A stretch of DNA of 55,402 bases from a virus (IMGVR_UViG_3300029448_000052:1-55402); one strand, 5' to 3'. Shown: positions 20,081 through 55,402, counted from the first letter of the stretch. Numbers and translations are program-made. The notes: generated by a model not told the origin, from the sequence alone.

Positions 20081-20698
20081 ATGTTCTATGCAATATGTGA
20101 AGGTTTTCCAGGAAGTTCTGGTCCAGCCTACATTGTTTATAAGTTTCCTACGCTAGAATCTATGAAGCCGTGTGAAGCTGTAAATGAATATAGTATTATT
20201 TACAATGGCGATTCGCATAGGCAGCTAATTGATTTCTGCTCTTTAGAAGAGCTAATTGAGATAGCTACCTGTTTGTGTATTGCGTTTACTGGCACGGAAG
20301 AAGTTAAATTTGTTTCTCTCCAACAAGCGGCTGACTATGTCCACTCAGTAGTGGTAAAGAAAGCTAAATTATGGAAACCCGAAAAGGAGTCTGATATGTC
20401 TACTGTTCATGTAGATCAATTTAATAATAAAGCACAGAAGCATGAAGCAGAGGTAAAAGAAACTAAAAAACCTCGCACTCGTTTTAGGAATGATGCTCGT
20501 ATCATTCTGTTAAAAGATACACCTACTGTGCGTGAAGGCACTAATCGTTTTCGTAATATGAAAGTTATTATGGAAAGTGCTACAGTTGGTGAAGCAATAG
20601 CTAAACTTCGCGCACTTACTCCTGCTCCAGGATCTGGGGTGGATATTAAGATAGCATGCGACGCAGGTGTTATAAAACTAGACTGGCAAGAGGAATAG
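20081..20698 (+). CDS. hypothetical protein, with a possible in-frame internal start at 20396
   Basis: RBS hairpin upstream; internal AAGGAG-N6-ATG at 20396. Confidence 0.6.
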   Translation: MFYAICEGFPGSSGPAYIVYKFPTLESMKPCEAVNEYSIIYNGDSHRQLIDFCSLEELIEIATCLCIAFTGTEEVKFVSLQQAADYVHSVVVKKAKLWKPEKESDMSTVHVDQFNNKAQKHEAEVKETKKPRTRFRNDARIILLKDTPTVREGTNRFRNMKVIMESATVGEAIAKLRALTPAPGSGVDIKIACDAGVIKLDWQEE

Positions 20699-20700
20699 CT

Positions 20701-21597
20701 ATGTTACCCGAAGCTGTAGAAAGTTACTTCGGCTGGATAAATGAGCGGCACTCAATATATCAACGCAGATTATTGGGTGCGCCACCACCTTGGACTAATG
20801 ATTCTATCCTGCAAGAATATAAGTTTACAAACCCTTTCCGTGAAAACGATAGGGTAACTGTATGGATGCGTGATAAATGGACAAAGCCAAATGATAACCG
20901 CCCACATGGTGAGATGATATTTAACTGTTGTATGTTTCGTATGGTTGGCACAAGTGAGTTTGCTGAAGAACATGGGTGGGTGGAAGATTTTAACCCACAA
21001 AAAACCAAACACCTTATTGAGTCAAGACTTTCTCTTGGTAAAAGAACATTTACTGGTGCATATATAATCACTAACCAAGGACTCAAAGCACCAAAATCTG
21101 AGGTAGTAGTTGACCACTTCCTTACGCCAATCTGGGAAAATAAAGAAACGCTGGCGAAGATTGCCCAAAAAACGCAGTCGCTCCAAGCGTTACATGAAGC
21201 GATGGGTGCGTATAAAGGGTGGGGAGGAGGAGGTTTTATGTCATACGAGGTGGTTACCGACCTCAACTACACACCTGTACTGGACAAGGCAAAAGACCGT
21301 TTTACTTGGGCTAACGCAGGTCCGGGAGCTATACGAGGAATTAACCGTATCCTCGGAAGAGATTTAAAAAAGGGTATGACCCAGCCTACAGCTAATGAGA
21401 ATATGGTTAGATTATTAAAACATGCACCCTATCATGTTTTAGGACATATCCCACTTAAACAAATAGATATGCGTACTATTGAGCATAGCTTATGTGAGTG
21501 GGATAAATATGAGCGTGTAAGGTTAGGGCAAGGTAGACCAAGAAGTGTTTATCGCCCTACTTTATTAACAGATACACCAAAAGGAGCTGTAGAATGA
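20701..21597 (+). CDS. aGPT-Pplase1 family (amino-acid:DNA transferase-like) thymidine hypermodification enzyme
   Basis: WINERHSIY...PPPWTNDSILQEYKFTNPFRENDRVT, FMSYEVVTDL, GPGAIRG, IEHSLCEWDKY; adjacent to a TS homolog. Confidence 0.85.
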   Translation: MLPEAVESYFGWINERHSIYQRRLLGAPPPWTNDSILQEYKFTNPFRENDRVTVWMRDKWTKPNDNRPHGEMIFNCCMFRMVGTSEFAEEHGWVEDFNPQKTKHLIESRLSLGKRTFTGAYIITNQGLKAPKSEVVVDHFLTPIWENKETLAKIAQKTQSLQALHEAMGAYKGWGGGGFMSYEVVTDLNYTPVLDKAKDRFTWANAGPGAIRGINRILGRDLKKGMTQPTANENMVRLLKHAPYHVLGHIPLKQIDMRTIEHSLCEWDKYERVRLGQGRPRSVYRPTLLTDTPKGAVE

Positions 21598-22868
21598 AGT
21601 TTCTAATGACAATGTTTCAAATACAAGATTACGGTGGAATCATTAACCATGCTGAGTATCTTGCTAAAGGTTTAAAAGAGTTAGGCCATGAAGTTGATTT
21701 TACTATGCTCGTGCCTAAACATAAAGTAGCCGCTAAAAGTCCCCCACCAAAAAACTTTGACCAATATCGTAAGGTTGGCACAGGATATCTACACCATCAA
21801 GCTAGGGGGTGGGCTGGTTTACCTAAGATCCCTTATCTTTCTAAATACCAAAGGGATTTGTTTAAACAGAAGTGTAGCAAGTATGATGCTGTTTTATGGC
21901 ATATCCCTGTACCCACCATGAGTAAGGAAAATAAAGGTATTACCGATTGGTTAGATTTGTATGACCACGGTACTAAAAACATAGCTATCATACATGATGG
22001 CAATTTGCCTGAGTTATACCCACACCTAATCCATGTACGCGAGATGTTCCATTCTGCTGTATGTGTACATGAGTCAGCTATGATTTCTGGTAGTATGTTA
22101 CCCATACCCCGCAAGCTGATAGTAAATCCGTTTGATGTTGGTATGGCAGATGGTTGGACTGACTTTGAAAAACGTGATGGTTTTGCAGCGGTGCAAGTTT
22201 TTAAAGCATGGAAACGTGTAGATACTTTAGTCCGCGCGATTAGATACATGACCCACAAAGAACAAAAGCTAATCGGTGGTGAAGGTATAGAATACAGATA
22301 CATGACAAGCCGTGATAAATGTAAGCCTAAATATTTTGACGAGCTAGGCGAACGCATTTGGGATAGAGCCAAGCGTTATGGTATGGAGCATTTAGGAACT
22401 GTGCCAAATGATAAAGTGTTTGAAATACTAAAACAGGTAAAGCTACAGATTGACCCGAGCTACAGTAAAAAGTATTCTAATTTTGGCGCACATTTTAATA
22501 GGACAACAGTAGAAGCAATACTCTGTGGTGCTGTGCCTGTGGCTACTGATTGGGGTATGCGGGATAGTGAAATATTTAAAGCAGGACAAAACTATATACA
22601 AATCCCAGCAGAGTGTGAACCGTTTAAGTTTGCTGACATTATAGATAATGCCATACATGATAAAGATCAATGGCTTCGTATAAAAGAAAACAATCTAAAA
22701 TTACTAGAGTTGTTTGATATGCGTAATGTAGCTCAAAGCTATGTTGATCTGGTAAACAATACACAAGAACTACTTATCGGCACTCCAGATGCTAAAGCCA
22801 TGCAAAAATGCCATAAAAACCTAGAGTTCTTCGGTATTAGCTCTTCAGACACTGCTCGAGTGGTTTAG
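21594..22868 (+). CDS. GT-B fold glycosyltransferase, putative DNA-modifying
   Basis: GGIINH...LAKGLKELGHEVD N-terminus, KAWKRVD, EAILCGAVPV; coupled to the aGPT-Pplase gene. Confidence 0.8.
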   Translation: MKFLMTMFQIQDYGGIINHAEYLAKGLKELGHEVDFTMLVPKHKVAAKSPPPKNFDQYRKVGTGYLHHQARGWAGLPKIPYLSKYQRDLFKQKCSKYDAVLWHIPVPTMSKENKGITDWLDLYDHGTKNIAIIHDGNLPELYPHLIHVREMFHSAVCVHESAMISGSMLPIPRKLIVNPFDVGMADGWTDFEKRDGFAAVQVFKAWKRVDTLVRAIRYMTHKEQKLIGGEGIEYRYMTSRDKCKPKYFDELGERIWDRAKRYGMEHLGTVPNDKVFEILKQVKLQIDPSYSKKYSNFGAHFNRTTVEAILCGAVPVATDWGMRDSEIFKAGQNYIQIPAECEPFKFADIIDNAIHDKDQWLRIKENNLKLLELFDMRNVAQSYVDLVNNTQELLIGTPDAKAMQKCHKNLEFFGISSSDTARVV

Positions 22869-22927: not shown

Positions 22928-23905
22928 ATGCAGTCAATTTATGCAAGAGGAGTAAGCGAAGCTCTGTTTTTAGGTCAACAAGCCTTATTTTCGTCAGGTA
23001 AGGAAGTAAACACCCGAAATGGTTTAGCACTTGAGTTTCCTACCCCTGTTATGACAACTTATACCCATAGCAGGGAACGAGTTTTGTTTTACCCAGAACG
23101 TGATGCTAACCCTTATTTCCATTTAATGGAAAGTTTATGGATGTTAGCAGGACGAAATGATGTGCCTTGGATTTTAGGTTTTAACGGTCGCATGAATACA
23201 TATAGTGATGATGGTAAAACTTTCCACGGTGCTTATGGTTACAGATGGAGGGAATGGTTTGGTAAAGATCAGTTAAAGATTATTCTGTTTAGATTAGGCA
23301 CTTACCATAACGACCGTAGAGCTGTTTTAGGAATATGGGATCCTCACCAAGATTTAGTTGAAACTAATGATGGGAAAGATTACCCCTGTAATACCCAGAT
23401 ATATTTTTGGGAGCGTAAGGGTGAACTAAATATGACTGTAACTAACCGCAGTAATGATATGATCTGGGGTGCGTATGGTGCTAATGCTGTTCACATGTCT
23501 GTGCTGTTAGAGTATATGGCTGGGATGCTTGGATATGTTGTAGGCACATATTATCAATTTAGTAATAATCTTCATGCATATACAGATGTCTTAGAAAAGT
23601 TAGAAGGTATGCAAGCAGATTATGAACCTTACCTTACATTAGGTGATGATGGGTTGAGTTATAACCCACCAGCTTTAATTGATGATCCTGATACATTTGA
23701 CCAAGAGCTACAAAAATGGTTTTTAGATGAAGCAAGAGTGACTTACAATAATAGTTATTTAGGATCTACTTGTGGAAATATGCGTAAGTCATGGAGATTC
23801 TGGAAAAATAAAAGTTACGATAATGCTTTTCATTGTGCCAATGCAATAGAAGATCGTGCATGGCGTAGAGCCTGTGTGGATTGGTTGCAAAGGAGAATTA
23901 AGTGA
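22928..23905 (+). CDS. thymidylate synthase homolog, probably dUMP hydroxymethylase
   Basis: GAYGYRWR, catalytic YPCN, RSNDMIWGAYGAN (Asn indicates dUMP-type specificity), NLHAY. Confidence 0.85.
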   Translation: MQSIYARGVSEALFLGQQALFSSGKEVNTRNGLALEFPTPVMTTYTHSRERVLFYPERDANPYFHLMESLWMLAGRNDVPWILGFNGRMNTYSDDGKTFHGAYGYRWREWFGKDQLKIILFRLGTYHNDRRAVLGIWDPHQDLVETNDGKDYPCNTQIYFWERKGELNMTVTNRSNDMIWGAYGANAVHMSVLLEYMAGMLGYVVGTYYQFSNNLHAYTDVLEKLEGMQADYEPYLTLGDDGLSYNPPALIDDPDTFDQELQKWFLDEARVTYNNSYLGSTCGNMRKSWRFWKNKSYDNAFHCANAIEDRAWRRACVDWLQRRIK

Positions 23906-30066: not shown

Positions 30067-30534
30067 ATGACTGAGAAAGTTGAAGCTAATGGTGTTGTAT
30101 CTAGTATGTCTGGTGCTGCTACTGCTGTGCCTGAAGATAGCGAGGTAGGTGCTGTATGTACAGACATTGCTGCGCGTGATGAGTTTGACCCTACTAAGCA
30201 TGTTTTACATGAGCAGATTCAAGCACAAGCCCAGCGTATGAGTGATGTGCGCTCTAGGTTTGAGAACCTTGGTGCTGATATGCAACATATCATGACTCTG
30301 CTTTATGGTTTGCAAGAAGAGGTAAAAGCTCTACGCATAGGCCAAGAGAATATGACGGCGGCTGGTAAAACAGTTGATGATGTGTATGTGCGTATAATTG
30401 AAGTTGAAGCCAAAGTTGAAGAGCTGTTTGACTCAACCATTAGCACTAATGATTACGACCCTGATGAGTGGGTGCGTGAAAGTGATATTGGCGACCGTGT
30501 ACGTGAGCTACGCTTTAATGTAGAGGTTGAGTAA
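30067..30534 (+). CDS. hypothetical coiled-coil protein
   Basis: Promoter and AGAAAG hairpin RBS upstream. Confidence 0.6.
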   Translation: MTEKVEANGVVSSMSGAATAVPEDSEVGAVCTDIAARDEFDPTKHVLHEQIQAQAQRMSDVRSRFENLGADMQHIMTLLYGLQEEVKALRIGQENMTAAGKTVDDVYVRIIEVEAKVEELFDSTISTNDYDPDEWVRESDIGDRVRELRFNVEVE

Positions 30535-31372: not shown

Positions 31373-31740
31373 ACCTATAAATATGGTTTATGACCCAAAA
31401 AAGAGGCCGCTCAGACGCCGCTCGACTGTCTCTAATGTAGTGGGTAGTAGGGTAGGTACCCCTAAAATAATGACTAATTACCAAGGTTTCTGATTAGTTT
31501 GCTATATAGGAGGTAAATGCGGATAGGAGTAAATTTGTTTTTTATGATTTGATAATATACAATATCTCACTATACACATATATTCAATGAGTTAGCATAT
31601 GAATTACGAAGATTGATCCAATATCTCAGTAAAGTATTTCCGTCCGCGCGATCTCATTTGTGATAAATTTGAATTTAACATAATTCGTTTTTAGACCTAT
31701 TATGCAAAGTACCCCATCAGGTACGAGAGAGAGGAATCAA

Positions 31741-32277
31741 ATGGCTTTAGCAAAAGCAACTCATAAGCCCACGCTTGATGTCGTCGCAAATCCACGCAAA
31801 GAAAAATCCATCACCCCTAAACAAGAAGAATTTGCACGACTTTATGTTTGTGAGGATATTTCACAAACGGAGGCGGCTGTCCGTGCTGGATATTCTGTGA
31901 AATCAGCCCATGCTATTGCCTCCCAATTATTAAATGGACAAAGGTATCCCCATGTAGTAGAGAGGATCCGTGAGTTAAAGCAAGAGTTAGCTCGTAAGTA
32001 TGAGGTCAGTTTTGAGGGTCATGTCAAAAAACTTGCTGAGATCCGTGATGCTGCGATGACAGGAGGAAATTTTGCTGCTGCCGTTGCCGCTGAAAAATCA
32101 CGAGGCCAAGCCGCAGGGATCTATATTGATCGTAAAGAAATCTTGCATGGTAAAATTGATCAGATGAGTCGTGATGAAGTTATGCGAGAAATAAAAAGGA
32201 TACAAGAGGAGTTCCCCGCATTAGCAGTTGTTACTGAGGGTAATATAATGATTGATCATGATGAGGGTGACAATTAA
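31741..32277 (+). CDS. terS: terminase small subunit
   Basis: ITPKQEEFARLYV...QTEAAVRAGYS..SAH.IASQLL. Confidence 0.85.
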   Translation: MALAKATHKPTLDVVANPRKEKSITPKQEEFARLYVCEDISQTEAAVRAGYSVKSAHAIASQLLNGQRYPHVVERIRELKQELARKYEVSFEGHVKKLAEIRDAAMTGGNFAAAVAAEKSRGQAAGIYIDRKEILHGKIDQMSRDEVMREIKRIQEEFPALAVVTEGNIMIDHDEGDN

Positions 32278-33784: not shown

Positions 33785-34090
33785 ATGATACAGTATGTAG
33801 ATATGAATGATGATGGTAATATGGTGGTTACTAATGAAGACCCCAGTCGCCTCATGTTGTTAACGACTTTGTGGTATACGGAGACCACTATGGTTGATGG
33901 CACTCCGTTTACACCTAACCCTGATGTATACATGGTATCCTGGACAGATGAGTTAAGGCAACGTGCCGAGTTAGCAGGTCGTATCAATGCTCATAATGAG
34001 TGGGCAAGGGAGCAGGAGGGTAGACCAGTTGTCAAGTTTGCCAAGCAACAAGTCGTGCTTATCACGCCTACCACAACGGAGCTGGTGTGA
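33785..34090 (+). CDS. hypothetical protein
   Basis: TAGAAAGGAG RBS. Confidence 0.55.
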   Translation: MIQYVDMNDDGNMVVTNEDPSRLMLLTTLWYTETTMVDGTPFTPNPDVYMVSWTDELRQRAELAGRINAHNEWAREQEGRPVVKFAKQQVVLITPTTTELV

Positions 34091-34171
34091 TGGATGGCAC
34101 GTTAATCTTTTTAATAGTCTGCGATGCAGTGCTTTTGATAGCAATCGGTTTCAAAGTAAAGGAGGAAATGA

Positions 34172-34612
34172 GTGAGTAAACCAGAGTCCACGTTGTGGAA
34201 AAATCTGCGTGAGGGAACCAAAGATCTAGGCGTGTTTTGGACACGTCTAGAGTCTTGGTCTAGTCCTGGAGTACCTGACCTGCATGGCATCTTAGATGGT
34301 CATGCTTTTTGGCTTGAACTTAAAGTCCATAGGTTAAACTCGTTAAATAAAATTGCGCTGCGTCCTCACCAAATTGCTTGGCAGATAAGATATAGCAGAT
34401 ATTCTGGAAACGTCTGGAACTTGGTTGGTCATCCTTCCTCCCGAACTATAAATATATTTCGTGGTGCGAGAGCCATGGAGCTGACAGAAAAGAGGACAAA
34501 AGATGATCCCTTGATACCTGACTGGAGTTCGGGGATTCCTTACGATTGGACGGGTGCCATCAATCATATTCTATCATCATCTCGTCCCATCATAAAGGAG
34601 GAAGAGCTCTAG
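34172..34612 (+). CDS. PD-(D/E)XK nuclease, Holliday-junction resolvase / VRR-NUC-like
   Basis: PESTLW...RLES...GVPDL...WLELK...LRPHQIAW. Confidence 0.8.
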   Translation: MSKPESTLWKNLREGTKDLGVFWTRLESWSSPGVPDLHGILDGHAFWLELKVHRLNSLNKIALRPHQIAWQIRYSRYSGNVWNLVGHPSSRTINIFRGARAMELTEKRTKDDPLIPDWSSGIPYDWTGAINHILSSSRPIIKEEEL

Positions 34613-34843
34613 TTTCGTCATCAATTATCCTCGGTCTAAAGTCAAATCATCAATCTTCCTCAATCATTTTCCATTGACGATTTACGAGGATTCGCGAGGT
34701 ACGATCTCTTGACGATGATTGATGATGACAATAATATTTAATGATATTTAATGATAATTAAAGACTTGTCAATAAAACTCGGCCATGCTATTCTAACATC
34801 ATAAGCAATGGTGCTTATGGAGATGTCGTAGAAAGGACATGTC

Positions 34844-35260
34844 ATGACTGTAAAAACTGCTAAAAAATCAACTGCTAAAACTGTCGTTAAATCTGCTGAG
34901 TTAGTGGTCACTGATAAAGAAATCACCTATCCAGAAATCTGGGCATTTATCCAGGAGCATGCTGGTGGCAATGAGGCTAACGTCAAAATTGTGCCTCTTG
35001 ACAATGTTGACTTGGCAAGCGCAACGCCTGTCCCGTTTGGCTATGGTGGCAAGACAGGAGGCGTTCGTCAGGTTATACAAGATTGGATGCTTAAAGGTGT
35101 TGATGGTGATTTGTCGCTAAAAGCCTCTCTTAATAAAGCGGCACCATTAGGACACTCGCGTAAAAAGCCTGTCTGCTTACATGCTTTGATGCATGGGGGA
35201 TACAGCCCGTCCAGCAAATACTGGATGACACCATTCGTCAAACTTGTAGTCCAAGGCTAA
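34844..35260 (+). CDS. hypothetical protein, paralog A
   Basis: Has its own promoter, hairpin RBS and terminator; colinear with 35666..36112. Confidence 0.8.
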   Translation: MTVKTAKKSTAKTVVKSAELVVTDKEITYPEIWAFIQEHAGGNEANVKIVPLDNVDLASATPVPFGYGGKTGGVRQVIQDWMLKGVDGDLSLKASLNKAAPLGHSRKKPVCLHALMHGGYSPSSKYWMTPFVKLVVQG

Positions 35261-35266
35261 CATAGA

Positions 35267-35293
35267 GGGGGACGTCGGTTGGCGTCCCCTTTT
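35267..35293 (+). terminator. rho-independent terminator
   Basis: GGGGACGTC-GGTT-GGCGTCCCC followed by TTTT. Confidence 0.7.
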
Positions 35294-35554
35294 ACCGAGG
35301 AACCATGCTTGAGGAAGAGGGATGATGATTCCCTTTGCCCGAGGAAGACTTCCTATATAGGCATTAGTCTATATATATCATGTCATCATCAATCTTTCTC
35401 TAATAAGTTTTGATGAGTTTTGAGGATTTAACATTTTAAAATGAGCATGGTCACGAAAACTCAACTGCTACACTTTGTAAAAAACAAATAGCAAAGGGTT
35501 AAAAATGTGGTTGTTAATTTTTGCACTAATAGTGCTGGGTTTTTATGGCCTACT

Positions 35555-35611
35555 AAAAAAGTAAAAATAAATAAAAATAAGTATTGTGCGCGACGCTAAA
35601 GTGTGCATAAT
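35555..35611 (+). promoter_or_regulatory. sigma70-like promoter with A-tract UP element
   Basis: A-tracts at 35555-35580, TTGTGC, extended -10 TGTG-CATAAT. Confidence 0.5.
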
Positions 35612-35665
35612 AAAAATTGTAGCCGCTACTGGCTACCGCATTTAACCGTAGAAAGGGTTTATAAA

Positions 35666-36112
35666 ATGCAAAACACTACTAAAGGCAAGGCAGCCAAAAA
35701 TGCCACTACTACTACAGCCGTTGTACCTGTAGCCCCTACATTGCAGCATACTGGCAATGAGCTAACCTATGCTTGCCTATGGGCGTTTATTAACGGCCAA
35801 GCTGGCGGCAATTTGCACAATGTGCAGGTAGTGCCACTTAGCAATGTTAAGTTAAACGACGCACAGCCAGTACCCTTTGGTTTTAATGGTAAAGCTGGCG
35901 GTGTGCGGCACCAAATACAAACTTGGTTGTTAAACGGTGTTAAAGGTAATAACAGCCTAGCCGCAATACTGGCGGCAGCTAAACCGCTAGGCCATAGCAG
36001 CAAAAAGCCTATTTGTTTACTTGCCATGTTAAATGGCGGCTACAGCCCTAGCAGTGCAGTATGGGGTACTGGCTACGTTAAACTGGTAGTGCAGCCCCAG
36101 CCTACCAAATAA
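35666..36112 (+). CDS. hypothetical protein, paralog B (nearly TC/GA-free, Asp/Glu-depleted)
   Basis: ATG at 35666 after AACC-GTAGAAAG-GGTT; shares WAFI..AGGN, PVPFG, GGVR, PLGHS.KKP.CL.A..GGYSPSS and VKLVVQ with paralog A. Confidence 0.8.
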   Translation: MQNTTKGKAAKNATTTTAVVPVAPTLQHTGNELTYACLWAFINGQAGGNLHNVQVVPLSNVKLNDAQPVPFGFNGKAGGVRHQIQTWLLNGVKGNNSLAAILAAAKPLGHSSKKPICLLAMLNGGYSPSSAVWGTGYVKLVVQPQPTK

Positions 36113-36148
36113 CCCAGCGTTGGGGGTACTAGGGTACCCCCAGCCACT

Positions 36149-36178
36149 AACACCGCCCAGCTTGGGCGGTGTTTTTTT
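36149..36178 (+). terminator. rho-independent terminator
   Basis: AACACCGCCCA-GCT-TGGGCGGTGTT followed by a T run; a second hairpin lies at 36121-36142. Confidence 0.8.
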
Positions 36179-36395
36179 GTACCCCCGCGAGACCGTCCCC
36201 TTGGCTATAGCTCGGTCTGTAGCCATGTTTTGGACAAATCGTGTGGTCATAAAAAAGTTTTTGGATATTGACTTTTACTCGATCAAAAGCCGAGACCGCT
36301 ACCCCCCTTTACTGTAGAATCGTCATAGGTTCATTGCCCTAGAAAAATTTTCGATATATTTATAATATATTCGCATTATTGAGGAACCATGGATA

Positions 36396-37859
36396 ATGGA
36401 CATTCAGTTTGTACCAGAAGAGCAATTAAAGAAGTACGCCCATTTATTAGACCGCGCTAAAGAGATTACCCAAGCAGAGGCCAGCCAGCAGGATTTTATG
36501 GAGTATACGCAAACTGTTTGGCCTGAATTTATAAATGGACGCCACCATAAAATAATGGCAGAGAAGTTTAACCGTATAGCTAATGGAGATTTAAAGCGGT
36601 TAATTGTAAATATGCCACCGCGTCATACTAAAAGTGAGTTTGGCAGTTATTTATTACCTAGTTGGTTGATGGGTAAAAACCCCCGATTAAAGATAATGCA
36701 GACAACGCATACGGCAGAGTTAGCATTTAGATTTGGCCGAAAGGTGCGTAATTTAATGAACTCTACAGAGTATACTAGGGTTTTTCCTGGAGTAGAGTTA
36801 CGTGCGGATAGCCAAGCGGCAGGGCGTTGGGAGACAAGTAAGGGTGGAGAATATTTTGCGGCGGGAGTTGGTGGTGCGGTTACAGGGCGTGGTGCTGATT
36901 TATTGATTATTGATGACCCACATAGTGAGCAAGATGCTTTAAGCCCTACAGCATTAGAGCATGCTTATGAGTGGTATACATCTGGTCCGCGCCAGCGTTT
37001 ACAACCAGGAGGTGCGATTGTCATTATTATGACGCGTTGGGCAGATAATGATTTAACAGGCAAATTGATAAAGCAACAGGGTAGAGATATACTGGCAGAT
37101 AAATGGGAAGTGGTTGAGTTCCCAGCGTTAATGCCAGATAGTGAAGAACCCCTTTGGCCTGAGTTTTGGAAAAAGGAAGATTTGTTAAGTGTTAAGGGTA
37201 GTTTGTCAGTTGGTAAGTGGGAGGCGCAATGGCAGCAAAACCCTACTGGCGATATGGCAGCTATACTTAAACGTGAGTGGTGGAATGTGTGGAAAAAAGA
37301 TGATATACCACCATTAGAGTATGTAATGCAGAGTTATGATACAGCATACAGTAAAAAAGAGAGTGCGGATTTTAGTGCTATAACAACGTGGGGTGTTTTT
37401 TATCCAGAGGATGGAGGACCAGCAAACATTATTCTGTGTGATGCAAAACGTGGTAGGTGGGACTTTCCTGATTTAAGGAGGCGAGCACTTGAGGAGTATA
37501 AATACTGGGAGCCAGAATGTGTACTAATTGAGGCAAAAGCCAGTGGTATGCCGCTTACTCAGGAGTTACGCAATATGGGTATACCTGTGATGAATTATAC
37601 ACCTAGCAGGGGTAATGATAAATTTACAAGAGTAAACTCTATTGCGCCATTGTTTGAAAGTGGTTTAGTATGGTCGCCAGATACTCGTTGGGCAGAAGAA
37701 GTTGTAGAAGAGTGTGCAGCGTTTCCCGCAGGGGAGCATGATGATTATGTTGATACAGTTACCCAAGCTCTACGTAGATTTAGAGAAGGCGGTTTTATTC
37801 AGCACCCCGAAGATTATGAGGATGATGAAGCTGTCCCTGTACAAAGGATATATTACTAA
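36396..37859 (+). CDS. terL: terminase large subunit
   Basis: NMPPRHTKS, TGRGADLLIIDDP, SYDTA, IEAKASG, HDDYVD. Confidence 0.95.
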   Translation: MDIQFVPEEQLKKYAHLLDRAKEITQAEASQQDFMEYTQTVWPEFINGRHHKIMAEKFNRIANGDLKRLIVNMPPRHTKSEFGSYLLPSWLMGKNPRLKIMQTTHTAELAFRFGRKVRNLMNSTEYTRVFPGVELRADSQAAGRWETSKGGEYFAAGVGGAVTGRGADLLIIDDPHSEQDALSPTALEHAYEWYTSGPRQRLQPGGAIVIIMTRWADNDLTGKLIKQQGRDILADKWEVVEFPALMPDSEEPLWPEFWKKEDLLSVKGSLSVGKWEAQWQQNPTGDMAAILKREWWNVWKKDDIPPLEYVMQSYDTAYSKKESADFSAITTWGVFYPEDGGPANIILCDAKRGRWDFPDLRRRALEEYKYWEPECVLIEAKASGMPLTQELRNMGIPVMNYTPSRGNDKFTRVNSIAPLFESGLVWSPDTRWAEEVVEECAAFPAGEHDDYVDTVTQALRRFREGGFIQHPEDYEDDEAVPVQRIYY

Positions 37860-40237
37860 TGGCAATTAACCCACGTCCCAGCAATATTGACCGCAGTTTA
37901 TTACAAGCCCCTAATGATACATTTAGTGCATTAGAAGATAATTTGCTTGACCAAGAGTTAGAAGTTTTAACAGAAGAGGCCAGTGAAGATGGTGGGGCAG
38001 AAGTTATTTTTGGTGAGGATGACCAGCCATTAGGTGAAGAGCCAGCTAACTTTTACGATAATATAGCAGAATTTTTAAGTGAAGATACACTTGGTAAAGT
38101 ATCTAGCTATGTTATGGAGAGTGTTGATGATGATAAAACCAGCCGTGATGAGTGGGTAGAAACATATACAAAAGGTTTAGAATTATTGGGATTAAAGTAT
38201 GAATCCCGCACAGAACCTTTTGATGGTGCTACAGGTGTAATCCACCCGATATTAAATGAAGCTGTAACACAGTTTCAGGCTGGTGCTTATAAAGAGATGT
38301 TACCTAGCACTGGTCCAGTAAAGGGTAATATTATTGGTGAGCCTACCCCAGAAATAGAAGCACAGGCTAAACGTGTACAAGATTACATGAATTATCAGAT
38401 TATGTATGAAATGGAAGAGTATGAGCCTGAATATGATCAGATGCTCTATTACCTTGGACTCTCTGGTAGTGCGTTTAAAAAAGTTTACCGTGATGATGTG
38501 CTTGGTAGACCAGTAAGTAAGTTTGTACCAGCCGAAGATGTAGTTGCACCGTATACGGCAACTGATCTAGCTTCAGCAGAACGTATTACACATATCTTAA
38601 AAATGTCTAAAAATGAGTTACGTAAGCTACAAGTAACTGGTTTTTACCGTGATATGGATATACCCAAGGGTGAAAACACTCAATCAGATGATGTAAAAGA
38701 GGCTTATAACGAAATTGAAGGCAGAGAACCTGCTGGAGATAGTGAAGAAGTTATTTTATATGAGTGCCATTGTTATTTAGACCTTGAAGAATATCCAGAT
38801 ATGGGTCAAGATGGTGAAGAAACAGGTATAAAACTACCTTATATAGCTACAATTAGTTCAGATAATGAAGAAGTATTATCTATACGGCGAAATTATCTGC
38901 AAGATGACCCTATGAAGAAGAAAATTGGTCATTTTGTGCAATATAAATTTACTCCTGGACTTGGTTTTTATGGTTTTGGCCTGATTCATTTACTTGGTAA
39001 TTTATCTCGCACAGCTACAGCTAATTTACGGCAGTTAATTGACTCTGGGACATTGAGTAATATGCCAGCAGGGTTTAAAGCTCGTGGTTTACGTATAGCA
39101 GATGAGCAAACACCACTACATCCAGGAGAATTTAGGGATATTGATATTCCTGGAGGTGATATACGCACCAGTTTGATGTCTTTACCGTATAAAGAGCCCT
39201 CTGCTACGTTATTTCAGTTAATGGGTTTTGTAATTGAATCAGCACAACGGTTTATTGGTACTACAGATATTGGTGTAGGTGATGGCAGACAAGAAATGCC
39301 AGTGGGTACAACTATTGCTTTACTTGAGCGTGGTGCAAAAATTATTAGTGCAGTCCATAAAAGGATGCATGCGAGTTTAAAACAAGAATTAAAAATGTTG
39401 GGGCGGTTATTTGCAGAAGACCCAACCCCTTATCCTTATAATGTAAAAGCTGATGCACAAATAAAAGCTACAGATTTTGATGCAAGGGTAGATATAATCC
39501 CAGTAAGTGACCCAAATATATTTAGTATGTCACAAAGGGTGGTTTTAGCTCAAGAACAATTAAAATTAGCTACTGCTGCCCCTGAGATGCATAATTTAAG
39601 AGAAGCATACCGCAGAGTTTATGAAGCATTAGGTGTAAATAATGTTGAGCAAATTTTAAAACCAGAGCCGCAACCCCAACAAATGGATCCAGCGGCAGAA
39701 AACCAGTTTGCTAGTCAAGCGGCTGGTGGTCAGGGTAAAATGCAAGCCTTCCCAGACCAAGACCATGATGCTCATATTTCTGTGCATTTAGCTTACATGC
39801 AAAGTAGAGTAGCACAAATGCAGCCCCCTATATTGCTCACATTAGAAAAACATATTTATGAGCATATTGGTATGAAGGCGATGGTGCAGTTCCAGCAACA
39901 AATGCAGCAAGATCCTAATATGCAGCAAATGCCCCCTGAGGCTCAAGCTGCTCAGATTGCTAAAGTACAAGCACAATTGATGGCTGAGTATCAACAGCAA
40001 CAACCGCCAGCACCACCTAGTGATCCGTTAGTTGATATAAAGAAACAAGAACTTGCATTACGTGAGCAAGAAATGAAAATGGATCAACAATTAGACCAAC
40101 AAAAGTTACAAGTTGATACACAGAGTAAACAAGAAAATGCTGATATCGCCCGTGAGCGTATAGCTTCTACTGAAGATATAGCTAATATGCGAGCACAAAT
40201 TGCTTTACAAAGACAACAGCAAAATAGGGGTGGGTAA
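37859..40237 (+). CDS. portal protein
   Basis: Follows terL; GSAFKKVY, FYGFGLIH, EMPVGTTIALLE; Gln-rich C-terminal tail. Confidence 0.85.
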   Translation: MAINPRPSNIDRSLLQAPNDTFSALEDNLLDQELEVLTEEASEDGGAEVIFGEDDQPLGEEPANFYDNIAEFLSEDTLGKVSSYVMESVDDDKTSRDEWVETYTKGLELLGLKYESRTEPFDGATGVIHPILNEAVTQFQAGAYKEMLPSTGPVKGNIIGEPTPEIEAQAKRVQDYMNYQIMYEMEEYEPEYDQMLYYLGLSGSAFKKVYRDDVLGRPVSKFVPAEDVVAPYTATDLASAERITHILKMSKNELRKLQVTGFYRDMDIPKGENTQSDDVKEAYNEIEGREPAGDSEEVILYECHCYLDLEEYPDMGQDGEETGIKLPYIATISSDNEEVLSIRRNYLQDDPMKKKIGHFVQYKFTPGLGFYGFGLIHLLGNLSRTATANLRQLIDSGTLSNMPAGFKARGLRIADEQTPLHPGEFRDIDIPGGDIRTSLMSLPYKEPSATLFQLMGFVIESAQRFIGTTDIGVGDGRQEMPVGTTIALLERGAKIISAVHKRMHASLKQELKMLGRLFAEDPTPYPYNVKADAQIKATDFDARVDIIPVSDPNIFSMSQRVVLAQEQLKLATAAPEMHNLREAYRRVYEALGVNNVEQILKPEPQPQQMDPAAENQFASQAAGGQGKMQAFPDQDHDAHISVHLAYMQSRVAQMQPPILLTLEKHIYEHIGMKAMVQFQQQMQQDPNMQQMPPEAQAAQIAKVQAQLMAEYQQQQPPAPPSDPLVDIKKQELALREQEMKMDQQLDQQKLQVDTQSKQENADIARERIASTEDIANMRAQIALQRQQQNRGG

Positions 40238-42874: not shown

Positions 42875-43076
42875 AGTTACCTTTGTTTTACTATTGATGA
42901 TTGGCGATGAAAAAGTAGAATATACGCCGTATGAAAACTTGTCTCAATGTTTGACCGTGCGCCGTAAAATCAAGCGTAATACTGGACATACAATTGATTT
43001 TGATAAAAGGTGGGCATGTAAGCAGTTGAAGGTAAAAATTGAGGCAGGCGAAATAATGGAGATTATTGAGCAATGA
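42867..43076 (+). CDS. hypothetical protein
   Basis: Coupled ORF with two Cys. Confidence 0.5.
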   Translation: MIEVTFVLLLMIGDEKVEYTPYENLSQCLTVRRKIKRNTGHTIDFDKRWACKQLKVKIEAGEIMEIIEQ

Positions 43077-43450
43077 TACAAGCACTTATAGGTCCAATAG
43101 CTAATCTGGCTGGTTCTTTTATGGAATCAAAAATAGAGCAAACAAAGGCTAAAGGCAGAGTTGCACAAGCTAAAGCAGAAGCTGAAGCAGAAGTTATGAA
43201 AGTAGCTGCCACTCACGAAGCTGGCTGGGAAAAAATTATGGCTCAGTCTAGTGACAATAGCTGGAAAGATGAAGCGTGGACTATACTATTTATCGTCATA
43301 ATAGCCATGTGCTTTATACCATACACCCAGCCCTATGTTGAAAATGGATTTGCTGCTTTATCGAGAACACCAGAATGGTTTCAATGGGCAATGTATGCTT
43401 CAATAGGAGCTAGTTTTGGAATTAGAGGTATAAAAGGATTTAAAAAATGA
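43073..43450 (+). CDS. putative holin
   Basis: SWKDEAWTILF...TM...PEWFQW...ASFGIRG; upstream of the lysozyme. Confidence 0.55.
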   Translation: MIQALIGPIANLAGSFMESKIEQTKAKGRVAQAKAEAEAEVMKVAATHEAGWEKIMAQSSDNSWKDEAWTILFIVIIAMCFIPYTQPYVENGFAALSRTPEWFQWAMYASIGASFGIRGIKGFKK

Positions 43451-43599
43451 GCTTGTATGAAAACATCCATAAAAGAAGAAAAAGTGGCAAGCCTATGAGA
43501 AAACCGGGACAAAAAGGCGCACCGAGTGCTGCTGATTTCAAAGCAGCAGCTAGAACTGCTAGGAAACGTGGTGGTAGTGCGAAAAAAGGTAAAAAATGA
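43447..43599 (+). CDS. 50-aa basic protein (not in the ORF track)
   Basis: MSLYENIHKRRKSGKPMRKPGQKGAPSAADFK...; ATGA overlaps at both ends. Confidence 0.6.
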   Translation: MSLYENIHKRRKSGKPMRKPGQKGAPSAADFKAAARTARKRGGSAKKGKK

Positions 43600-44048
43600 A
43601 TAAAGATAAATTACGCGAAGAGATCGCAGAAGATGAAGGTTGTAAGTACGAGGTGTATCTCGATCATCTTGGGCTTCCGACTTGTGGTATAGGCCATCTC
43701 ATTACAGAAATTGACGAAGAGCATGGCAAAACTGTTGGCACTGTTGTTGAGCAAGAGCGTGTTAAACAGTTATTTGCTCTTGATATGGCTGTCACTGTTG
43801 AGGAGTGCCGAGTGCTGTATGATGATTTCGATGATCTGCCCGAAGAATGCCAACATATTATTGCAAATATGATGTTCAATATGGGCAGACCTAGACTGAG
43901 TAAATTCAAAGGCATGAGGGCTGGTGTTGATGCTCGTGATTGGAACGTCGCAGCAGATGAGATGGTTGATTCTCGCTGGTATACTCAAGTTCCAAATAGA
44001 GCCAGAAGACTTGTAGAACGTATGAGGGCGTTATCAGAAAATGAATGA
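43596..44048 (+). CDS. endolysin, T4-type lysozyme (GH24)
   Basis: EDEG....YLDHLGLPTCGIGHL, NMMFNMG, SRWYTQVPNRA. Confidence 0.9.
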   Translation: MNKDKLREEIAEDEGCKYEVYLDHLGLPTCGIGHLITEIDEEHGKTVGTVVEQERVKQLFALDMAVTVEECRVLYDDFDDLPEECQHIIANMMFNMGRPRLSKFKGMRAGVDARDWNVAADEMVDSRWYTQVPNRARRLVERMRALSENE

Positions 44049-44238
44049 CCTTTACATTTACGAGAATATGCTTAAGATAATTCGCGAACGGTCAAAATCA
44101 GTTCAAGAAAGCATTTTATATGGTGCTGTAGCTGATTTTGCTGCCTTCAAGGAACTCCGAGCTAAACTTGGAGAGCTTGCACAAACTGAACAGGATTTAA
44201 AAACCCTGCTAGATAAGGTATCAAAAACAGATGGCTAA
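44041..44238 (+). CDS. hypothetical protein
   Basis: Coupled ORF before GroES. Confidence 0.55.
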   Translation: MNDLYIYENMLKIIRERSKSVQESILYGAVADFAAFKELRAKLGELAQTEQDLKTLLDKVSKTDG

Positions 44239-44668
44239 GACATTACTCGTCCCAGATTACATTGTTAAACAAAAAGAAAAAGAAAAACAAACCGACCCTG
44301 AAGTACCCTCTCTTGAAAAGTTACCAAAACCTACTGGTTGGCGTATACTGATACTACCCTTTAAAGGTAAAAAACAAACAGAAGGTGGGATATTATTACC
44401 TGACCAAGCTATTGAGCGTGAGGCTCTGGCTACTGTTTGTGGGTATGTTCTTAAAATCGGACCTCTTGCTTATCAAGACCCTAACAAATTTGGCAACCCC
44501 GAAGACCCTAGCAAAAACTGGGAACCGTGGTGTAAAGAGGGTGATTGGGTGATTTTTGGCAGATATGCTGGGAGTCGTTTTAAAATTGATGGTGGTGAAG
44601 TGCGTCTTTTAAATGACGATGAGATTTTAGCTACAATCAATAATCCAGAAGATATTCTGCACATTTAA
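44231..44668 (+). CDS. groES: co-chaperonin GroES-like protein
   Basis: PTGWRILI...TEGGILLP...GDWVIFGRYAG...LLNDDEILA. Confidence 0.9.
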   Translation: MAKTLLVPDYIVKQKEKEKQTDPEVPSLEKLPKPTGWRILILPFKGKKQTEGGILLPDQAIEREALATVCGYVLKIGPLAYQDPNKFGNPEDPSKNWEPWCKEGDWVIFGRYAGSRFKIDGGEVRLLNDDEILATINNPEDILHI

Positions 44669-46700: not shown

Positions 46701-47609
46701 ATGGCTATTGCAAGATCCCAACTCCTTAAAGAGCTAGAGCCAGGACTAAACGCCCTGTTCGGCATGGAGTATGACCGCTACGAGAACCAACATACTGAAA
46801 TCTTTGAAACTGAATCTTCGGATCGGGCTTTTGAAGAAGAGGTAATGTTGTCAGGATTTGGAGCCGCACCTGTAAAGGGTGAGGGTCAGGCAGTTTCATT
46901 TGATACTGCAAACGAATCATTCACTGCTCGTTACACACACGAAACAATCGCGCTTGCTTTTGCGATTACTGAAGAGGCTGTAGAGGATAATCTTTATGAC
47001 CGCTTGAGTTCTCGTTATACTCGTGCATTGGCTCGTTCAATGTCTAACACAAAGCAAGTGAAAGCTGCTTCTGTTCTCAACAATGCGTTCGATAGCGGCT
47101 TTGCTATCGGCGATGGTAAAGAGTTGTGTGCTACTGACCACCCGACTAACGGTGGTGGTACTTTCCGCAACGAACTCAGCACTGCTGCTGACCTGAACGA
47201 AACATCTTTGGAGCAGTCACTAATTGACATTGCAGCCTTCATTGATGAGCGTGGGTTGAAAATTGCTGTGCAAGGTCGCAAGTTGATCATTCCTTCTTCA
47301 CTACAATTTGTAGCTGAAAGATTGATGGCTTCCAACCTACGCCCAGCGACAGCAGACAATGATGTCAACGCTATGAGAAATATGGGTATGTTGCCTGAGG
47401 GTTATGTTGTTAACAACTTCCTCACAGATACAGACGCATTTTTCATCAAAACGGATGCACCTAACGGCTTCAAGCATTTTGAGCGAGCAGCTATTAGGAC
47501 TTCTATGGAAGGCGATTTTGACACAGGTAACGTGCGTTACAAAGCTCGTGAGCGTTATAGCTTTGGAGTTTCTGACCCACGTTGTGTGTTTGGTTCTCCT
47601 GGAGCTTAA
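46701..47609 (+). CDS. major capsid protein
   Basis: MAIARSQLLKELEPGLNALFG...ITEEAVEDNLY...GDFDTGNVRYKARERYSFG; strong RBS and downstream terminator. Confidence 0.9.
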   Translation: MAIARSQLLKELEPGLNALFGMEYDRYENQHTEIFETESSDRAFEEEVMLSGFGAAPVKGEGQAVSFDTANESFTARYTHETIALAFAITEEAVEDNLYDRLSSRYTRALARSMSNTKQVKAASVLNNAFDSGFAIGDGKELCATDHPTNGGGTFRNELSTAADLNETSLEQSLIDIAAFIDERGLKIAVQGRKLIIPSSLQFVAERLMASNLRPATADNDVNAMRNMGMLPEGYVVNNFLTDTDAFFIKTDAPNGFKHFERAAIRTSMEGDFDTGNVRYKARERYSFGVSDPRCVFGSPGA

Positions 47610-55196: not shown

Positions 55197-55207
55197 TGAG
55201 GTAGCTT

Positions 55208-55402
55208 ATGTCTTTAACAGGATGGGGTAGAGGTACTTGGGGTGAGGGTGCGTGGAACCAAAGTGTTCCACTTGCTGTAACAGGAGTTGTTGGAACTACT
55301 TCTCTAGGGTCTGTTACGGTACAGAACATATTGGAAATTCCTGTAACGGGGGTTGCTGCAACTGGAGCGGTTGGAACTGTTAGCGTATCAGGTACAGCGG
55401 CT
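55208..55402 (+). CDS. putative tail protein (3' truncated by the window)
   Basis: GAGGT RBS; MSLTGWGRGTWGEGAWN...VTGV.ATGAVG; open to the window end. Confidence 0.6.
   Translation, partial: MSLTGWGRGTWGEGAWNQSVPLAVTGVVGTTSLGSVTVQNILEIPVTGVAATGAVGTVSVSGTAA

Follow-up and report, generated by a model that had tools for sequence, protein, structure and literature searches.

The 55,402-base record IMGVR_UViG_3300029448_000052 (the window, which is the entire virus record) is the genome of a marine phage with almost all of its genes on the plus strand, and its large terminase gene (terL) and the adjoining portal gene are unusually poor in the dinucleotide 5'-TC-3' on that strand. In them a both-strand TC avoidance that runs through the whole genome and its clade reaches its local extreme, and this avoidance is selection on the dinucleotide itself, not codon preference or one-way mutation bias. 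Something intrinsic to the phage lineage appears to read 5'-TC-3' in DNA, and we tentatively favor the explanation that selection thins the phage's own putative TC-context thymidine hypermodification. Coordinates of the features discussed are given in Table 1.

The extent of the depletion is clear from simple counts. A sequence-only reading of this region had estimated about 8 TC on the plus strand between 36421 and 37380; there are exactly 8 (together with 70 GA), the minimum over all 960-nt windows taken at 10-nt steps (median 33, 5th percentile 20) and reached by only four of them, starting at 36411–36441. The whole of terL contains 20 TC in 1461 nt, and 112 GA. We used two controls, one in which synonymous codons are redrawn from the rest of the genome (500 resamples) and one in which a gene's own synonymous codons are permuted within the gene. 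For terL the first predicts a mean of 59.3 TC (ratio 0.34, lowest draw 41, z −6.8) and the second 38.5 (z −5.7); for the portal gene, with 56 TC, the expectations are 105.0 (0.53, z −6.3) and 87.8 (z −7.3), and the gene after the portal is close to expectation (52 versus 54, ratio 0.96). By codon resampling, none of the other 15 dinucleotides is as depleted as TC in either terL or the portal. The depletion is specific to TC, is biased towards one strand and withstands synonymous-codon shuffling, as that reading had supposed. Codon usage or translational bias was rejected as its cause, since it persists after shuffling within each gene.

The codon choices point to the dinucleotide. Serine in terL is encoded by AGT (14) and AGC (4) in 18 of 23 cases, leaving five TCN codons, phenylalanine by TTT 18 times and TTC once, and isoleucine by ATT (13) and ATA (11) with no ATC, all in agreement with the earlier description. 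Every NTC and TCN context is depleted alike, and all codon phases are low, with 5 TC against 13.0 expected at codon positions 1–2, 3 against 13.1 at positions 2–3, and 12 against 33.6 across positions 3–1. At codon junctions under permutation terL has 12 TC against 31 (z −5.7) and the portal 30 against 62. GA, which is TC on the minus strand, is at expectation in terL as a whole (112 versus 112.4; ratio for synonymously removable GA 1.00), and 75 of the 112 occupy codon positions 1–2 and thus belong to Asp and Glu codons. The claim that GA stays abundant through these residues holds for the total; at the junctions GA is at 21 against 27 (z −1.9). The strand bias in terL is real, yet GA is not entirely untouched. 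CC is in excess at codon junctions (+5.9 in terL, +7.2 in the portal), so that TC has been lost through T>C before C-initial codons and through C>T within codons. We conclude in favor of selection rather than mutation because all phases are low, serine has switched from TCN to AGY, CC is raised at junctions, and the upstream gene B (see below) has given up Asp and Glu; the CC gain, the serine switch and the Asp/Glu loss contradict the one-way TC>TT footprint of a deaminase. CT is also depleted in terL (z −5.5) but at 0.80 in the clade versus 0.86 in an outgroup it is not a clade-specific feature. The depletion of GA in the portal and other genes possibly reflects, in part, an avoidance of Shine-Dalgarno-like words, since it partly concerns GGA and AGG.

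The major capsid gene, with which the earlier reading contrasted terL at about 23 TC per 360 nt, does reach 24 TC in 360 nt and has 48 in total (ratio 1.3). This excess lies within codons (18 versus 12.1 at positions 1–2, 18 versus 9.0 at positions 2–3) and the junction TC is still low, at 0.63. Because the capsid gene is TC-rich through within-codon TCN and NTC, the comparison was one between two extremes. Richness of this kind is expected of highly expressed genes, which lends something to the view that nothing special has happened in terL, and that its composition follows from weak-expression codon usage, from G>C skew, or from import of a terL-portal module from a differently composed phage. 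Within the window, G>C skew does peak in the terL region, and in four more distant relatives terL (0.60–0.71) falls within the range of the replication genes. Set against this, the depletion survives permutation of terL's own codons, the observed/expected ratio (O/E) already corrects for base content, and among the 16 dinucleotides only TC behaves regionally. Furthermore, the per-gene TC ratio is unrelated either to general use of C-ending codons (NAC/NAT, rho −0.003) or to gene conservation (rho −0.04), so that neither C-ending codon use nor residence time and conservation could be retained as a driver of the differences between genes. The depletion is present in 55 terL sequences down to 74% protein identity and is therefore maintained rather than recently imported. 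We regard this account as largely refuted and very improbable.

Beyond terL and the portal, the avoidance extends to the entire genome. Pooling codon-junction dinucleotides and comparing them with within-gene permutations, we find TC at 0.68 (z −16.8, the lowest of the 16) and GA at 0.79 (z −8.2), with TG and CA slightly enriched (1.09 and 1.08). Four complete relatives give 0.64–0.88 for TC and 0.73–1.02 for GA, and the single minus-strand gene avoids both in five genomes (TC 0.44–0.71, GA 0.46–0.83). Avoidance of TC and GA together, genome-wide and throughout gene B, is symmetrical by reverse complement and points to duplex DNA. By gene, the ranking runs from gene B, which has no TC, through the low terL and portal to the moderately low replication genes, and ratios exceed one in the small terminase gene (terS; 1.18 in the window, 0.88–1.72 in relatives), a neighbouring nuclease-like gene, gene A and the capsid module. 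The ratios correlate with those of the four complete relatives (rho 0.66–0.79 over 28–36 orthologs), and with gene-specific levels conserved in this way the intensity of selection belongs to the gene or region and not simply to distance from a genome end.

The clade was defined by scanning IMG/VR with the terL protein, from which 80 loci were kept; 55 distinct terL sequences at least 74% identical, the window included, make up the clade, and 20 sequences at 64–69% identity form the outgroup. Mean junction TC in terL is 0.50 in the clade and 0.87 in the outgroup, junction GA is 0.90 and 0.97, and the TCN fraction of serine codons is 0.39 and 0.70. For 47 of the 53 clade loci, TC in terL is lower than in the remainder of the locus; the same is true of 14 of 20 in the outgroup. 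The sequence-only reading had proposed a comparison with terL of relatives lacking modification genes, and the outcome supports it: the three cultured relatives without a kinase, HTVC027P, 023Pt_psg01 and DSL-LC04, are all undepleted (1.16, 1.05 and 1.14), and their junction TC/GA values are 1.00/1.00, 0.96/0.97 and 0.97/0.88, respectively. These values also bear on the thought that surface-ocean phages purge TC to avoid sunlight damage, 5'-TC-3' being the main site of (6-4) photoproducts. Depletion of both strands genome-wide, the origin of all 20 runs that contain the stretch (marine, seawater or aquatic metagenomes), and a weak, below-cut-off match to a pyrimidine-dimer glycosylase (PF03013, E 5.9e-4) would suit such an avoidance, but the cultured seawater relatives HTVC027P and 023Pt_psg01 are undepleted, and sunlight would leave the gene-specific pattern unexplained, as well as the A/B twin and the strand bias; we consider it scarcely probable.

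The most extreme avoidance is found immediately upstream of terL, in a TC-free island that extends from a promoter-like region to a terminator-like hairpin at 36149–36173; the longest TC-free gap in 60 Markov simulations is 318 nt. The island contains gene B, whose 57% identical paralog, gene A, lies 400 nt upstream of it and is rich in TC. The relatives share this twin arrangement, with B homologs 220–330 nt upstream of terL and gene A ratios of 0.78–1.93 in four of them, and 34 of 45 clade loci have a purged island. The A/B family has 207 metagenomic homologs, none of them named, and a tblastn search of gene B against GenBank phages gave no match. The predicted structure of gene B is confident (predicted local distance difference test, pLDDT, 86), but a Foldseek search with it returned nothing at E ≤ 0.001, and in a VIA-wide structure search the best Z was 5.2, with numerous winged-helix DNA-binding domains at Z 3–4; these matches are too weak to assign a function. 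The TC/GA-free leader 5' of gene B contains a hydrophobic reading frame of 19 codons (35505–35564). Gene A is flanked at 34610–34733 and 35305–35400 by a TC-rich repeat of 16–22 nt with the core TCATCAATC, in two direct copies and one inverted copy upstream and one inverted and one direct copy downstream, the final copy ending exactly at the start of the TC-free island; these repeats may be operator, origin or packaging sites. Between the island and terL there are 7 TC and 8 GA from 36189 to 36294. We also note that GAGACCG occurs twice in 36189–36298 and nowhere else in the window, although two matches are no more than expected by chance, and that a second terminator-like hairpin (36202–36225) is situated between the copies.

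The sequence-only reading interpreted the depletion as a gradient running rightwards from the island, where a genome end or packaging start near 35–36 kb would make marks costly on the strand tracked by the motor or in the first-entering DNA; packaging motors, as seen in phi29 work, grip the strand that enters 5' to 3'. Averaged over the 55 distinct clade loci at positions relative to terL, TC O/E falls from 1.21 at −2000 and 1.01 at −1500 to 0.39 at 0, and then returns through 0.49 at +500 and 0.66 at +1000; by region it is 0.39–0.49 over −500 to +500, 0.57–0.66 to +3000 and 0.73–0.86 to +7000. The outgroup profile stays at 0.80–1.08, and only TC among the 16 dinucleotides shows this regional pattern. 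A sharp upstream edge followed by slow downstream recovery (0.39 to 0.86 over 7 kb) is what a gradient would produce, and the most TC-rich kilobase (34001–35000, O/E 1.36) abuts the poorest. The recovery is stepwise, however, and not smooth, with a bump at the 3' end of terL and a plateau over the portal in the clade mean and, in the window itself, a jump at the portal stop codon (0.53 to 0.96 in the next gene). The fading that had been described is a rise in TC together with that step (per 100 nt, 0.82, 1.02 and 2.25 in the thirds of terL; 1.51, 3.19, 2.02 and 2.69 in the quarters of the portal; and, for the gene that follows, 5.25 in its first half and 3.57 in its second). Relative to the outgroup the last third of terL is less depleted than the portal, contrary to a smooth gradient. 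Continuity with the island also fails, for the 200-nt gap between the island and terL has ordinary TC and the depletion of terL is independent of whether the island is purged (0.51 versus 0.58, p = 0.23). Finally, depletion far from 36 kb was named beforehand as the observation that would count against the gradient, and it is present: genes 14–17 kb away, and one at 30.1 kb, are as depleted as terL, with junction TC of 0.29 in the kinase gene, 0.36 in a DUF932 gene and 0.23 in the gene at 30067, against 0.37 in terL (0.50 in the primase, 0.44 in the portal; 0.29–0.50 across the genes at 15.5–22.9 kb).

No genome end in this region could be shown from the contigs available. Over approximately 34010–36413 the k-mer depth is about twice that of the flanks in three runs of three studies (24 versus 12, 37 versus 20, and 59 versus ~33), which could reflect a terminal repeat or, equally well, co-occurring strains that share the stretch. 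Among truncated clade loci, 9 of 46 have a contig end in the 700 nt preceding terL and 3 of 38 have one in the 700 nt downstream, a weak excess. The assembled contigs of four of the 24 listed runs showed no starts or ends, those of three runs bridge the island (35.1–36.35 kb), and one complete relative, G004, closes as a circle with a 105-nt terminal overlap. In another, G006, the first 1538 nt match the last ~1350 nt at 93–99%, with the match stopping at the 3' end of gene B; the overlaps in both look like wrap-around assemblies, not ends. Overall, we judge a gradient from a genome end to be quite improbable.

What then reads TC? The best candidate is post-replicative thymidine hypermodification by the phage, for which the window encodes a 5-hydroxymethyldeoxyuridine (5-hmdU) DNA kinase homolog, a glycosyltransferase and a thymidylate-synthase homolog. 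The kinase scores 172 bits with PF18723 (HMUDK_hel) against a cut-off of 25, placing it among the 5-hmdU DNA kinases, and shares 32–38% identity with those of YuA, PaMx11 and Sonora-type phages. The thymidylate-synthase fold is evident (PF00303, E 1.7e-18) and would suit a hydroxymethylase or a methylase alike. We rank context-specific thymine hypermodification first because it is the only known process that reads duplex TC and is brought along by the phage. Fewer TC would mean fewer bulky marks, and with the plus strand of terL and the portal thinned roughly two- to three-fold this DNA would be marked mainly on one strand; the minus strand keeps its TC because the GAN codons for Asp and Glu cannot be removed. 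A related possibility, that Asp/Glu content makes plus-strand marks redundant, was not retained, junction TC against Asp+Glu content giving rho of −0.33 and −0.31 in two of five genomes and no significant correlation in the other three. The A/B twin pairs a TC-rich copy with one that is free of TC and almost free of GA, the purge taking in its promoter and terminator as well, and such a pair would suit DNA occurring in two states.

Avoidance and the kinase also travel together among the relatives. Of 20 records searched, 14 have a kinase homolog, among them all nine clade records that are at least 90% complete, and the six without it are fragments, 33–53% complete; two of these, from the outgroup, nevertheless span ~19–20 kb upstream of terL, where a conserved gene order would place the kinase. 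The complete genomes of the three cultured relatives (HTVC027P, 023Pt_psg01, DSL-LC04) have no kinase homolog. When loci were instead anchored on the kinase, 48 of 52 had junction TC below 0.9 (52 of 80 such loci were used, 28 being left out as apparent duplicates). Members of the clade span ~34 to 57% G+C, a spread that argues against the enzyme or signature of any one host and points to something the phage brings along.

Several observations weigh against a thinned thymidine mark. First, the kinase link rests on essentially one clade, and hence one evolutionary event, and avoidance is lacking in a contig that encodes a kinase of 49% identity (junction TC/GA 0.98/0.95). Secondly, an ortholog of the glycosyltransferase is present in only two of four complete relatives, and G004, which lacks it, avoids TC strongly. 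Thirdly, other kinase-bearing phages enrich the word at junctions, with TC 1.34 and TG 1.28 in PhiJL001, 1.08 and 1.08 in YuA, and TG 1.10 and TC 1.13 in SH-Ab 15599, so that a phage avoiding its own motif is no general rule; the enrichment of TG and CA in the window (1.09/1.08) is like that of these other kinase-bearing phages. Lastly, the model leaves the strand bias unexplained, and the removable GA of terL is not purged beyond the genome average.

The strand bias is more readily accommodated by a TC-directed enzyme acting on single strands, either host- or phage-encoded, such as a single-stranded DNA deaminase, a TpC endonuclease, a thymidine ADP-ribosyltransferase or a UC-cutting RNase, to which the plus strand or mRNA of terL and the portal would be exposed. 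TC-specific enzymes of this kind exist, among them APOBEC-type deaminases, T4 endonuclease IV and DarT. Junction TC in terL is 0.39 of the permutation mean as compared to 0.78 for GA (0.50 and 0.90 in the clade), and terL has an internal 5'-to-3' rise in TC that other genes lack, the first and last thirds of genes not differing in four of five genomes. However, in gene B the avoidance covers TC and GA equally, over the whole unit between promoter and terminator, and both are low at junctions genome-wide, including in the minus-strand gene, which suggests duplex DNA. A one-way C>T change is contradicted by the CC excess and the serine codon-family switch, the avoidance spans relatives of ~34–57% G+C and so probably several hosts, and the three kinase-less relatives do not share it. 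The target of DarT-type thymidine ADP-ribosylation is TNTC, and there is no such signature: T at position −2 of the remaining TC stands at 0.96 of its base frequency in the pooled clade terL sequences (1.32 in the window's terL), and avoidance of DarT-type targets was accordingly rejected. A strand-tracking machine that starts close by would likewise account for the strand bias, but it too fails elsewhere. We consider a single-strand reader unlikely.

A variant of the hypermodification explanation, which we think distinctly unlikely, is that the phage has expression levels written into its TC density, with its own putative mark as the means of reading them. Marked, replicated DNA would damp TC-rich units such as gene A, terS and the capsid module, while gene B, and then terL and the portal, would stay readable from fully marked DNA, both in the incoming genome and late, during packaging; the strand bias of terL and the portal would then show the strand to which the reading machine is sensitive. 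Such a code is consistent with the findings because TC levels are conserved (rho 0.66–0.79), the A/B twin is opposite in composition, and the purge runs from promoter to terminator.

The phage is an HTVC023P-type marine podophage. In a report on uncultivated members of this group, these phages are described as very abundant, and hypermodification genes are reported in clades V, VIII and IX (PMC9599517). The nearest named terL proteins are 57–65% identical and belong to Pelagibacter phages HTVC027P and HTVC023P, phage 023Pt_psg01 and lake phage DSL-LC04; a megablast search of 35300–38000 against GenBank phages gave no match. The record begins in the middle of a gene, with only the C-terminal part of a DUF7483 protein present (1–442 and 55197–55402), and is therefore not quite complete, its ends being assembly breaks. 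The replication block comprises an AEP primase, a UvrD-like helicase and a family A polymerase, with the kinase, glycosyltransferase, thymidylate-synthase homolog and HD nucleotidase all inside it. Between terS and gene A is a gene of 146 amino acids (34172–34612) with matches to phrog_2165 and phrog_93 (labelled DNA helicase and endonuclease) but none in Pfam, and it is TC-rich in the window and four relatives (1.15–1.74). Between the portal and capsid genes there is a lysis pair (43073–44048), consisting of a holin with three transmembrane segments (PF11351) and a phage lysozyme (PF00959), and a GroES-like gene (44231–44668).

Table 1. Positions of the features discussed, counted from the first base of the window.
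Feature	Coordinates	Strand	Remarks
5-hmdU DNA kinase homolog	20656..21597	+	PF18723, E 1.7e-50; candidate writer of a context-specific mark
Glycosyltransferase	21594..22868	+	PF00534, E 4.8e-8; adjoins the kinase
Thymidylate-synthase homolog	22928..23905	+	PF00303, E 1.7e-18; candidate deoxyuridine monophosphate (dUMP) hydroxymethylase
terS (small terminase)	31702..32277	+	PF03592, E 4.3e-14; 4.1 kb upstream of terL
Gene A	34844..35260	+	138 amino acids; TC-rich twin with 22 TC and 20 GA, ratio 1.3
TC-free island	35461..36196	.	735 nt, 0 TC, 4 GA
Gene B	35666..36112	+	148 amino acids; recoded paralog of A with TC 0, GA 2; 1 Asp and 1 Glu left
B-terL intergenic region	36197..36395	+	Ordinary TC/GA; breaks the TC-poor tract
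terL (large terminase)	36396..37859	+	phrog_38, E 1.4e-107; most TC-poor large gene
Portal gene	37859..40237	+	phrog_1216, E 8.4e-44; second most TC-poor large gene
Major capsid gene	46701..47609	+	phrog_371 and PF25209

If selection does thin a thymidine mark, then the target context of a modification could be read from sequence alone, and a simple codon-junction statistic could be used to screen metagenomes for it. Gene-by-gene TC density would map where a phage can and cannot afford its own mark, and would make the cost of hypermodification testable. Two new questions also arise, namely why the packaging genes should be thinned on one strand and why this clade contrasts with phages that enrich their modified context; a literature search returned no paper on either.

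A comparison with phages that use the kinase pathway is instructive. Pseudomonas phage M6, Salmonella phage ViI, Delftia phage phiW-14 and Acinetobacter phage SH-Ab 15599 modify thymines only in certain dinucleotides, with TG preferred to TC. The sites at which DNA of M6, ViI and phiW-14 resists restriction are reported to be enriched in TG and TC (PMC6449724), and dapT of SH-Ab 15599 occurs mainly at TG and less at TC (PMC13458397). Like these phages, the window has a PF18723 kinase and a thymidylate-synthase homolog by a family A polymerase, with an HD nucleotidase. Unlike them, Pfam searches gave no aGPT-Pplase-type transferase in the window, which has a group-1 glycosyltransferase instead; an aG/PT-PPlase1 is named in related HTVC023P-type clades (PMC9599517), and the glycosyltransferase may be the same protein under another label. 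The direction of the bias also differs, as SH-Ab 15599, YuA and PhiJL001 enrich TG and TC at junctions and the window clade depletes TC and GA while enriching TG and CA. In these three phages CA and GA are enriched as well, the opposite of the window for TC/GA, and such enrichment may indicate that selection favors additional modified sites; neither YuA nor PhiJL001 has any dinucleotide-free island. The phage T-dioxygenase 5mYOX97, which prefers NTC, shows that an enzyme from a phage is able to place a TC-specific mark on thymine (O'Toole et al., PNAS 2026, PMC13229309). It belongs to a different family, the iron/2-oxoglutarate (Fe/2OG) dioxygenases acting on T, and no domain of that kind was found in the window.

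Two further systems provide useful contrasts. In human DNA viruses, TC depletion with strand asymmetry is attributed to APOBEC3 and read as escape from a host cytidine deaminase acting on single-stranded DNA; its footprint is TC loss with TT gain, whereas the window shows CC gain, a serine codon-family switch and a whole transcription unit that avoids TC on both strands. Phages also avoid restriction sites and palindromes, and CpG is depleted through methylation, these being short words that are purged because an enzyme reads them. The word avoided here differs in being a non-palindromic dinucleotide, its avoidance is graded by gene and by strand, and in one gene it has been bought at the cost of amino acids.

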